From Eledone cirrhosa (lineage: Eukaryota), in contig OZ024740.1 in assembly GCA_964016885.1 (NCBI GenBank), forward strand, positions 285,820,001 through 285,884,000: 64,000 nt of DNA. Direction: 5' to 3'. The notes beneath the pieces are model-generated. The model saw only the letters and a list, made by a program, of their open reading frames with translations, was not told the origin of the DNA and ran no database searches. Positions 16,961-46,847 of this stretch are shown here, piece by piece. Position 1 is the first letter of the stretch. Every line of letters begins with the position of its first letter. The position numbers were made by a program, and so were the translations under genes.

Positions 16961-17569
16961 TCATTTATTTCTGAATGGCTTGATATTTCTTGTATTGATT
17001 TCTCAAGCACAAGCCTGTTTTCTACAAGAAACCTAGTGCTCTTAGGTATCTAGCATGCCATCTAGAACGGAAACTGACAGACTGTACTAACCCATCTTTC
17101 CCATGCCAGCATGGGAAACAGACTTCTGAAAAAGTTGATGATGATGATGGAGCGACAGACTCCTAGTCTTCATTAAGGCATCTCTCTAGAAGGTCACCCT
17201 GATATAAAACCTGCGACTTCATTTGCATCCAATGATTTAGATCAGTGCTACTTTTTGGGTAACTGCATTTGATGTTCAGAGAGCGTGATTGGAGCCGTGC
17301 AAAGCCTTTCCTCACTTACAAAAGCTTCAAGCATAGGCACCGCTTGATGTGACATTTTTTGTGATGCATGGTATTGCTGGCCATAGGCAAGTCCCTAGCA
17401 GGACTAAAAAGGACTAAAAAGCCATGTCCATGATGCTCATGCTTAAGTATCAAGCAATGGCATAACTTGAAAACAAGTTGCAGCCATCATTATATACATT
17501 ATATACATATACATATACATTATATACATATACATATACATATAAATACGTTTACCAATATATATATCA

Positions 17570-18847
17570 GGCAAAAGTACCACAGACGCTCTTTTCATTG
17601 TACGACAACTACAGGAGAAGTACCTAGCTAAAAGTAAACCCCTATACTTAGCTTTCGTCGACTTGGAGAAAGCCTTCGACAGAGTCCCCCGTTCCATTAT
17701 CTGGTGGTCTCTTAGAAAACTAGGTGTTGACGAATGGCTTGTGAGAGCTATACAAGCCATGTATAAAGAAACAGTCCGTAAGGTTAGAATTAACGACGAA
17801 TATAGTGAAGAGTTTAGCGTAAAAGTTGGTGTCCATCAGGGCTCTGTTCTTAGCCCCCTACTATTTATTATTGCCCTTCAGGCTATAACAGAGGAGTTCA
17901 AGACCGGCTGCCCATGGGAACTCCTATACGCAGATGATCTAACGCTCATAGCTGAATCAATGACCGAACTAGAGAAGAAATTCCAAACATGGAAGCACGG
18001 CCTAGAATCAAAAGGCCTTAAAATTAACCTGGCTAAGACTAAAGTTCTAGTTTGTAGGAAAGAAAATAAGGCGGCAGTCCCATCTGGAAAATGGCCATGC
18101 TCAGTGTGTAGGAAAGGCGTAGGTAGAAACTCCATTTTATGTCCCAAATGCAAAGTATGGGGGCATAAAAGATGTAGTGGGATCACAGGTAAGCTAACTA
18201 AGAACATAGATTTTACATGTGGCCGGTGCTCTGGTGCAATAAGTAGCAGCAAGTGCCCACAAAATACTAGCTCCTTCAACTGCGCAGAGGGTTCTATAGA
18301 AATAGTGGACAGCTTCCGTTACCTGGGCGACAAAATCAGCAGTGGGGGAGGGTGCTCTGAAAGTACAGTAGCTAGAGTCAGAACTGGATGGAAAAAGTTC
18401 AGAGAGCTTATACCACTATTAGCCGCTAGAGGGTTCTCCCTAAAAATGAAAGGCAGGTTATACGATGCCTGCATACGAACAGCAATGCTGCATGGCAGTG
18501 AGACCTGGGCATTGTGTGCAGAGGACATACGCAGTCTAGAGAGGAACGAAGCTTGCATGCTCCGCTGGATGTGCAATAGTAATATACGTGAACGGCAAAG
18601 CATAAACGAACTAAGGAAAAAATTAGAAATAAGAGGGATCAGATGTTGTTTACTCGAGAGAAGGCTACGTTGGTACGGTCACATGATGCGCATGAAAGAC
18701 GACAGCTGTATAACAAAGTGCAGGGCAATAAAGATAGACGGTAGCCACGGAGTAGGCAGACCCAGAAAAACATGGGACGAGCTGATAAATTCCGACCTCA
18801 CACGCTTACACCTCTCCAAGACAATGTCACTGGACCGAGACCTTTGA
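17570..18847 (+). pseudogene. RTE-type reverse transcriptase (partial ORF) with internal PHD-like zinc finger
   Basis: Open frame GKSTTDALF..LAFVDLEKAFDRV, GVHQGSVLSPLLF, LLYADDL, KINLAKTKV, FRYLG, MLHGSETW, RRLRWYGH, GRPRKTW. TGA at 18845 is likely a mutated TGG, since paralogs read DRDLWRHAV, giving an ancestral stop at 18883. Confidence 0.92.
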
Positions 18848-19605: not shown

Positions 19606-19930
19606 ATGATAGGGACTGGGGTCCATATCATTCCACTGCAAAGTGGTCGTGGAGGTGCCACGGCAAAAAAGCACCCAGCACTCACTGTAAATGAGGTTGG
19701 TGTTAGGAAGGGCATCCAGCTGTAGAAATCAAGCTAGAATCAGTTCCCGTCCCACCCTTGCAAGCAGGGAAAGTGGGCGTAAAATGATGATGATGATGCT
19801 ATAACAAAGAGGGTGTGGTAAGATACCAGGTGGACCATAACGCAGCAGAGTACTCAATACTTAGGGCAGTAGAGTTCAGATCTAGCTGTCGAAATGGCCG
19901 GAATCCAGCTGTCGGGGTCCTGACTCTTTT

Positions 19931-19983
<53 letters not shown>

Positions 19984-20014
19984 AAGTGGTAACACAACAG
20001 TTAGTTCACCATAC

Positions 20015-20055
20015 CGAGAACAATTGTTTCACCTTAGCAGCAGATCTTCAGCTCG
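20015..20055 (-). ncRNA. Minimal type I hammerhead ribozyme motif (CUGAAGA core)
   Basis: CGAG-CUGAAGA-UCUGCUGCUAAGGU-GAAAC-AAUU-GUU/CUCG: 4-bp stem I, both core boxes, palindromic stem III ACAAUUGU, GUU cleavage triplet. Stem II is weak. Confidence 0.65.
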
Positions 20056-20127
20056 CAATGGTCATGGTTATACGGAACAGGAAGGACATGCGGTTGTTCT
20101 TCCTGTTCCGTATAACCATGACCAGTA

Positions 20128-20165
20128 TGAGCTGAAGATCCGCTAAGGTGAAACAATTGTTGTCG
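20128..20165 (+). ncRNA. Mirror hammerhead motif with disrupted stem I
   Basis: UGAG-CUGAAGA-UCCGCUAAGGU-GAAAC-AAUU-GUU/GUCG; the first stem I pair is a G.G mismatch. Confidence 0.45.
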
Positions 20166-20273
20166 GTATGGTGAACTAACTGTTGTGTTACCACTTCTAC
20201 CTAACTCGTCCCATGGACTGAGTGCTCTACCACTATGGATATTACCTTCCAGTGTTCTACCCCTATCTCTCTC

Positions 20274-20312
<39 letters not shown>

Positions 20313-20398
20313 AATATATATATATATATGTGTGTGTGTGTATATATATATCATCATCATTAATGTCCATTTTCCACATTAGCATATAGCTGGATATA

Positions 20399-46355: not shown

Positions 46356-46447
46356 CTGGGCAGTTATATCCGTAGTTGGTAGAGCACTCAGTCCAAACGA
46401 TGAGTTCAGTATCGAGTTAGTTCCACAACAAATTAGCAAACCATAAA

Positions 46448-46484
46448 CGAGGACGCGCGTTTCACCAGATGGATTTTCAACCCG
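46448..46484 (-). ncRNA. Minimal type I hammerhead motif, U3-A8 core variant
   Basis: CGGG-UUGAAAA-U-CCA-UC-UGG-U-GAAAC-GCGC-GUC/CUCG: 4-bp stem I including one G.U, 3-bp stem II, palindromic stem III ACGCGCGU, GUC triplet. Confidence 0.65.
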
Positions 46485-46537
46485 TGTATGGCTGCAGTGA
46501 GAACAGATTATATTTCTGTTCTCACTGCAGCCATACA

Positions 46538-46574
46538 CAGATTGAAAATCTGTCCAGTGAAACATGCGTCCTCG
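46538..46574 (+). ncRNA. Mirror hammerhead motif (U3-A8), stem I decayed
   Basis: CAGA-UUGAAAA-U-CUG-UC-CAG-U-GAAAC-AUGC-GUC/CUCG. Confidence 0.4.
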
Positions 46575-46626
46575 ATTATGGTTTGCTAATTTGTTGTGGA
46601 ACTAACTATATATATATATATATATA

Positions 46627-46840
46627 TAGTAATAATAATAAATTTGAAGACTAAAATCCAAAGAGGGCTCGATAAGGATAAATATATATCAAATATATAA
46701 GAACCGTAGAGCAAATATTTATTAAAATAACAGATTAAAGTTTGAGCGAAGAATCGCTGCTTTCACCCTTAACGGGATCTTCAGAAGATCCTGTTAAGGG
46801 TGAAAGCAGCGATTCTTTGGTTAAACTTTAATCTATTTTA

Positions 46841-46847
<7 letters not shown>
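46627..46847. mobile_element. PLE-like element ending in a fold-back (46715-46847) centred on a hammerhead CUGAAGA box
   Basis: Apex GGATCTTC-A-GAAGATCC. The minus arm reads CUGAAGA-U-CCC-GUUAA-GGG-U-GAAA followed downstream by AATAAA. Flanked by (TA)n. Confidence 0.65.

Follow-up and report, generated by a model that had tools for sequence, protein, structure and literature searches.

A Hydra-type PLE family of Eledone cirrhosa whose short double-ended insertions mimic a SINE with a hairpin

The window, by which we mean the whole 64,000-nt stretch of Eledone cirrhosa DNA analysed here, contains a hairpin at 19982-20198, the two arms of which (19982-20088 and 20091-20198) are about 90% complementary. 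It folds at -181.9 kcal/mol with a z-score of -23.2, and none of 200 shuffles folded as well. The arms meet at an apex (20087-20091), and an unpaired extension runs beyond the hairpin to about 20262. Microsatellite lies on either flank: a (TA)n run at 19933-19981 and a (TC)n/(TA)n/(TG)n run at 20263-20350. The first-pass annotation had described this locus, read on the minus strand, as an element that begins with a tRNA-like head, continues through a long hairpin and ends in (TA)n. Indeed the head sequence is located on that strand at about 20243-20213, the hairpin is real and the (TA)n end is present, but the start has to be moved to about 20262, some 20 nt beyond the head, where the element is again bounded by microsatellite.

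We are all but certain that this hairpin consists of two short 3' ends of a Penelope-like retroelement (PLE), placed head to head inside a (TA)n repeat. The arm at 19982-20088 is a 5'-truncated PLE 3' end in minus orientation (PLE sense) which carries no tail, and we refer to its outer end as site 2. The other arm, at 20091-20198, is a 5'-truncated PLE 3' end in plus orientation and continues on the same strand into the PLE tail (20199-20262), a segment of about 66 nt between two fixed ends, the outermost being site 1; read in antisense, the tail is what had been taken for a tRNA-like head. The apex is thus the head-to-head junction of both truncated arms, and its position varies between copies. 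The minus strand carries at 20015-20055 a type I minimal hammerhead of the pLTR with a stem I of CGAG/CUCG, a core of CUGAAGA with an additional U, and the palindromic stem III ACAAUUGU; the motif and its GUU cleavage site between 20019 and 20018 are located where they had been annotated. A second sense hammerhead lies on the plus strand of the other arm (20128-20165), with its innermost stem I pair broken.

Other repeats share this DNA. Next to the (TA)n run, at 19805-19932, is another high-copy repeat, which elsewhere in the genome is often a neighbour of copies of the family described here (family 1). At 46363-46606 (+) there is a second family, with a related tail, a long hairpin and a hammerhead with a U3-A8 core and a CG-rich palindromic stem III; a first look gave 1,853 candidates for it, some of which adjoin Hydra-type ORF fragments. 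At about 46713-46846 lies a third palindrome, which ends in (TA)n and whose minus strand has, at 46784, a hammerhead-like core of the form CUGAAGA...UGAAA; it is likely to represent a further PLE family within the cluster of microsatellites found there. Finally, a 433-aa open frame with reverse-transcriptase motifs at 17546-18847 (+) presumably represents an RTE-like LINE.

The identity of the arms follows from copies that are longer than the one in the window. Copies that do not turn back at the window's apex go on into a region that codes for endonuclease and has the same sense as the hammerhead. In one of them, L112, the window arm and tail follow, at 94% identity, some 140 nt behind an ORF of 585 aa (20100-20262 against the 3' end behind this ORF, over 162 nt), and L112 also has a tail-less inverted copy at the 5' end of the ORF-containing element. 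Another one, the natural full-length copy L142, is arranged as pLTR-ORF-pLTR with direct repeats of 385 nt that are 96% identical, and in L145 the corresponding repeats are 270 nt and 90% identical. The frame of L142 stops before the C-terminal end, hence L142 is a broken copy. The window arm at 19982-20088 matches positions 68-170 of L142, tail-first, with 88% identity, while the plus arm together with the 'head' matches both L142 pLTRs at 90%. In L142, L145 and L147 the tail runs on into the 5' UTR; in L142 this is the tail behind the upstream repeat. Of the two readings offered at first pass, the one that combined a pLTR and its antisense tail with an inverted duplication was right.

The 585-aa ORF of L112 shows the motifs FDIVDFYP, YRDD and VVY..YVG, that is, reverse transcriptase followed by a GIY-YIG-type domain. 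DKT stands in place of DKG in L142, L144, L146 and L148-L151, and translations of L112-L118 contain a CxCX5C linker as well as CxxC and CxH around E and N. DKT, CxCX5C, CxxC and CxH are the hallmarks of the Hydra clade as given in section 11 of PMC8557442, where the clade is also described by a short single ORF with RT then GIY-YIG, by (TA)n targets, a 3' hammerhead and an inverted 5'-truncated copy, as we see here. In four copies we find RWR or KWR, where the published Hydra description has RWK; among 120 ORF relatives RWK occurs in 65 and RW[KR] in 85. These relatives are about 700 aa long and 36-50% identical (best 120/308). Pfam gave no match with either the endonuclease fragment or the 585-aa ORF, and among the 41 relatives scanned it gave only matches below the cut-off, to RVT_1 in 2 and to GIY-YIG in 2. 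The ORF family has a weak profile match (E 4e-4) to a Pfam-positive GIY-YIG PLE fragment, and a search of PDB sequences with ORF and profile queries returned nothing significant. Because Pfam is nearly blind to this family, our domain call rests on motifs and on by-eye likeness to the printed Hydra alignment. An assignment of the ORF to Neptune was considered and dropped on account of the CxCX5C linker.

Taken as a PLE, the family has a single RT and GIY-YIG ORF, pLTR direct repeats, a hammerhead in the pLTR, an optional tail and an inverted 5'-truncated copy. ORF motifs, (TA)n targeting and the style of the hammerhead all match the Hydra clade, in which we place it on sequence grounds, the reference proteins having been compared by eye. 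There are published precedents for PLE insertions that are inverted and tailed, for hammerheads of the Hydra clade and for a Hydra family in octopus, the last being Hydra-1_Obim of Octopus bimaculoides in the supplement of Craig et al. 2021 (PMC8557442). The protein of Hydra-1_Obim is similar by eye, whereas its hammerhead is different, and none of five motifs of the window family occurs in the supplement text; we therefore regard ours as a different, new family. It departs from the clade as described in PMC8557442 by RWR for RWK, by a stem II of only 2 pairs, by a tail of about 66 nt where 30-40 nt is given, and by its thousands of copies, many of them short hairpins.

A genome search for the element gave 2,655 first-look candidates. 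Exact motifs of 30-31 nt were found genome-wide 2,882 times for the tail and 5,132 times for the hammerhead arm, while the reversed controls were not found at all. Our main sample consists of the first 90 tail-motif matches on one contig, in order of position; behind the tail, 1.5 kb of sequence was taken for 30 loci and 3 kb for the other 60. In this sample 85 of 90 tail-bearing copies start at positions 1-9 (site 1), and 4 continue into a tandem unit. An inverted arm, mostly tail-less, is present in 51 of the 90, and 41 of these 51 end at positions 61-73 (site 2); 5 further copies have only a stub of an inverted end. Thirty arms that were selected by the hammerhead motif alone, some of them from one and the same insertion, divide equally between site 1 and site 2, with 15 ending at each. 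Away from the window, 78 of 89 site-1 ends adjoin (TA)n or (GA)n and 37 of 40 site-2 ends adjoin (TA)n or (TC)n; pure (TA)n accounts for 65 and 28 of these ends, respectively, and most of the others are GA/TC runs.

Hairpins shorter than 420 nt make up 36 of 89 tail-bearing copies (about 40%), a share calculated after one duplicate locus had been dropped. Extrapolated from the 2,882 exact matches, this would correspond to roughly a thousand short near-perfect hairpin loci; what the window holds at 19982-20198 is an ordinary and abundant transposon remnant. The reach of the arms ranges from 64 to 2,577 nt across copies. When 29 hairpin copies, chosen by similarity, were aligned, their outer parts were constant and the apex differed from copy to copy. 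The question of whether the hairpin is fixed in the family or specific to one locus thus has neither answer, as an inverted arm is common and its apex is variable. Contigs of three sequencing runs from one sample also show varied apex joints, as well as loose ends that pass at 20199 into (TA)n; since they may come from the same sample as the assembly, we do not count them as independent support. Single loci show further arrangements. In L152 the apex holds 22 nt copied from the tail, and L015 begins at an internal repeat of the terminal word, which is possibly a third start site. Three copies (L021, L049, L064) are fully palindromic with a tail on both arms, hence site 1 is usable at both ends.

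How do such insertions come about? Since nearly every copy has an apex of its own, each insertion probably generates its hairpin afresh. We hold it very probable that the window copy is a truncated PLE insertion with Hydra-clade motifs, in which a tailed and a tail-less 3' end are joined head to head, likely after reverse transcription from two starts. For the more specific step, reverse transcription primed off both target strands, our confidence is lower, although we do prefer it. The GIY-YIG nuclease would nick (TA)n on both strands; one cDNA would start at the tail end (site 1) and another at site 2; both would stop early, and their 3' ends would be joined through short, often palindromic microhomology. 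We infer double priming and microhomology joining because the data on the arms, with outer ends at two fixed sites about 66 nt apart, are in line with work in vitro, where a PLE protein cut both target strands and extended them, the starts falling at two sites on either side of the tail (PMC11167929). That protein belongs to an element of the Poseidon clade, not of Hydra. In the literature searched on PLE twin priming, on tRNA priming and on Hydra hairpins with small RNA, nothing on point was found.

The element used in that study, PAc of Anolis (Frangieh et al. 2024, PMC11167929), shares with ours, as described there, AT-rich targets, a hammerhead upstream of the tail, and a tail of which both ends are fixed and carry AC-rich words. 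Its sites were mapped in vitro, whereas those of the window family are known from genomic ends alone.

The comparison of arms was done with 88 hairpin copies from three samples, from which 3 doubtful copies and one junction column were dropped. Of 438 subfamily sites compared, 400 are concordant between the two arms of a copy, and in the position-ordered subset 132 of 140 are; among 2,000 sets of shuffled pairs the concordance averaged 54% and never exceeded 67%. The remaining discordance between arms, 8.7% at subfamily sites, is near the background of 6.2%, and in 3 of 85 copies, one of which is that of the window, the arms disagree at two subfamily sites. Private changes are confined to one arm in 65 cases and shared by both in 4, therefore the arms have mostly aged separately. 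The lengths of the arms were compared in 49 copies, a duplicate and one tandem case having been left out. Here the tail-less arm is longer by more than 25 nt in 15 copies, the tail arm in 6, and in 28 the two are within 25 nt, where 17.7 would be expected; the Spearman correlation of arm lengths is 0.66. For short hairpins, measured against four natural references with a margin of 20 nt, the tail-less arm is longer in 7 of 36, the tail arm in 3, and 26 are within the margin.

These data have to be weighed against the alternative in which the PLE identity is the same and the hairpin arises by fold-back, a single cDNA snapping back on its 3' end and serving as its own template as far as site 2. 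We consider it unlikely as the general explanation, yet it is the most serious competitor. Both arms usually share a subfamily, and coupled arm lengths are predicted by fold-back too, which counts against the two-primer step; most short hairpins are near-symmetric, 7 of them exactly so, several centred on palindromic words. On the other hand, symmetric junctions would be expected as well if two same-sense cDNAs annealed at a palindromic word. Fold-back gives no reason for a stop at site 2, and it does not lead one to expect the copies, that of the window among them, in which the arms differ at two subfamily sites. Simple fold-back is also insufficient for the 15 of 49 copies in which the tail-less arm exceeds the tail arm, by as much as 1,947 nt; such copies can be explained by it only if later deletions are assumed. 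The symmetric majority may have arisen by fold-back.

The other proposal made at first pass, a Pol III-driven hammerhead SINE whose minus-strand transcript would start from the tRNA-like head, resembles the Sm-alpha SINE of Schistosoma, a repeat with a type I hammerhead (PMC6765202), and we judge it to be very improbable. The order of parts on the minus strand does agree with it, for the head comes first, the sense hammerhead last and (TA)n stands at the end. There is also a likeness to tRNA: the head contains 17 nt that match tRNA-Thr as its best local match (12 of 500 shuffles were as good), and the tail of the second family matches it over 20 nt (0 of 500). This test was post hoc and used a small set of 9 tRNA genes from the same genome. 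Some of that control set came from a group of dispersed, near-identical tRNA-like genes with varying anticodons (L184, L186-L194), possibly a young tRNA-derived repeat and not true tRNAs.

As a promoter, however, the head is not tRNA-like. ARAGORN found no tRNA gene in the window, and Rfam gave no match there at the gathering score; with the limit relaxed to E 10 it gave 47 weak matches, generic hairpins with no tRNA or hammerhead family among them. As for Pol III boxes in the head, the best A box has 7/9 and the best B box 6/10, where real tRNAs have 9/9 and 10/10. Read in antisense, the head belongs to the interior of an autonomous PLE and, in full-length copies, enters the 5' UTR of the ORF. 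The head end is constant and the far end truncated, the opposite of a SINE, and the ribozyme is predicted to be sequestered in the hairpin. Moreover, since the apex differs between copies, there is no master hairpin being amplified. As described in PMC6765202, Sm-alpha has its Pol III promoter on the ribozyme strand and forms direct tandems, whereas the window element has no boxes, its head is antisense to the ribozyme of the parent and its arms are inverted. Likewise, non-LTR retrozymes (bioRxiv 10.64898/2026.07.22.740005) resemble it in being PLE-derived and non-coding with a type I hammerhead, but they are described as direct tandem units, unlike an inverted pair with a copy-specific apex.

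What had been called a tRNA-like head is therefore no promoter; it is the antisense of the PLE tail, in which one short word resembles tRNA. The tail (20199-20262) contains a small bulged hairpin in addition to the 17 nt that resemble tRNA-Thr. Its word is complementary to the part of tRNA-Thr from D-loop to anticodon stem with which a 5' tRNA half ends, so one could imagine that these 17-20 nt are a real tRNA-binding site between the two starts of reverse transcription and that in this clade a host tRNA or tRNA half is a cofactor of double priming. We think this improbable, as the word is a repeat of the one at the terminus of the element, at a distance of 30 nt, and the literature searched holds no case of a PLE that uses a tRNA or tRNA half for double priming. 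Priming by a tRNA half at the tail was rejected: no copy begins at the expected point (0 of 30 arms picked by hammerhead and 0 of 51 inverted arms).

A MITE-like DNA element with long terminal inverted repeats in TA sites, or a miRNA precursor, might be suggested by the long near-perfect hairpin with TA flanks and by sub-threshold Rfam miRNA matches (57 bits vs 110), but its chance is practically nil, as it is refuted by the full-length copies, by the continuity with the RT/endonuclease ORF, by a tail on one side only and by the wide range of arm reach.

The hammerhead deserves separate comment. The first-pass annotation called the CUGAAGA motif intact-looking, and for the core this is correct, while stem II of the window copy has a 3-nt insertion and a C-to-U change relative to most copies. 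Among 51 matched arms of family 1, to which these counts apply and in which the search patterns fix part of the core, CUGAGGA occurs in 23 and CUGAAGA in 19 (42 together), and stem III is ACAATTGT in 45. In family 2, 6 of 8 arms have U3-A8, and the palindrome in stem III is a different one. Judged from these alignments, the core appears conserved with covariation across both families. The layout of the minus-strand motif matches Hydra hammerheads in File S2 of PMC8557442, and U after A9 and U before GAA are shared with many of them; a U...U closure of stem II, which might have passed for a new variant, is seen in many Hydra hammerheads and does not count as one. With the minimal PLE hammerheads of Cervera and De la Pena 2014 (PMC4209133) it has in common type I topology, a short stem I, a palindromic stem III, an extra base after A9 and, in family 2, the U3-A8 core variant; it lacks their G10.1-C11.1. 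That paper describes such covariation, dimer dependence and low activity for PLE hammerheads, and in Schistosoma also PLE hammerhead pairs on opposite strands 100-700 bp apart.

The predicted probability of stem I is 0.9 in a 54-nt piece of L142 and 0.01 in a 188-nt piece; for the window it is 0.1-0.2 in the isolated motif and 1e-39 in the whole element, where forcing stem I would cost a predicted 59 kcal/mol. Hence cleavage of a read-through RNA is unlikely: according to these folding models the ribozyme is locked inside the hairpin, and cleavage of the full minus-strand RNA would be blocked. Whichever strand is transcribed, the antisense arm comes first and would pair with the hammerhead, so that silencing is predicted in a hairpin copy. 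The hammerhead belongs to the pLTR of the parent and would likely act in the parent RNA, as a dimer or with assistance of protein.

The hairpin structure as such is already known. What this family adds is a large natural data set, with thousands of young copies, two sharp ends and copy-specific junctions, which bears on how PLEs make inverted, tailed insertions and agrees with the two start sites in vitro. Its short hairpins are also a trap for the annotation of SINEs, MITEs and miRNAs. A-to-I editing is extensive in octopus. If they are read through, the short hairpins would be ready dsRNA for such editing or for siRNA production, and siRNA from inverted Penelope copies has been reported in Drosophila (PMC3681739).
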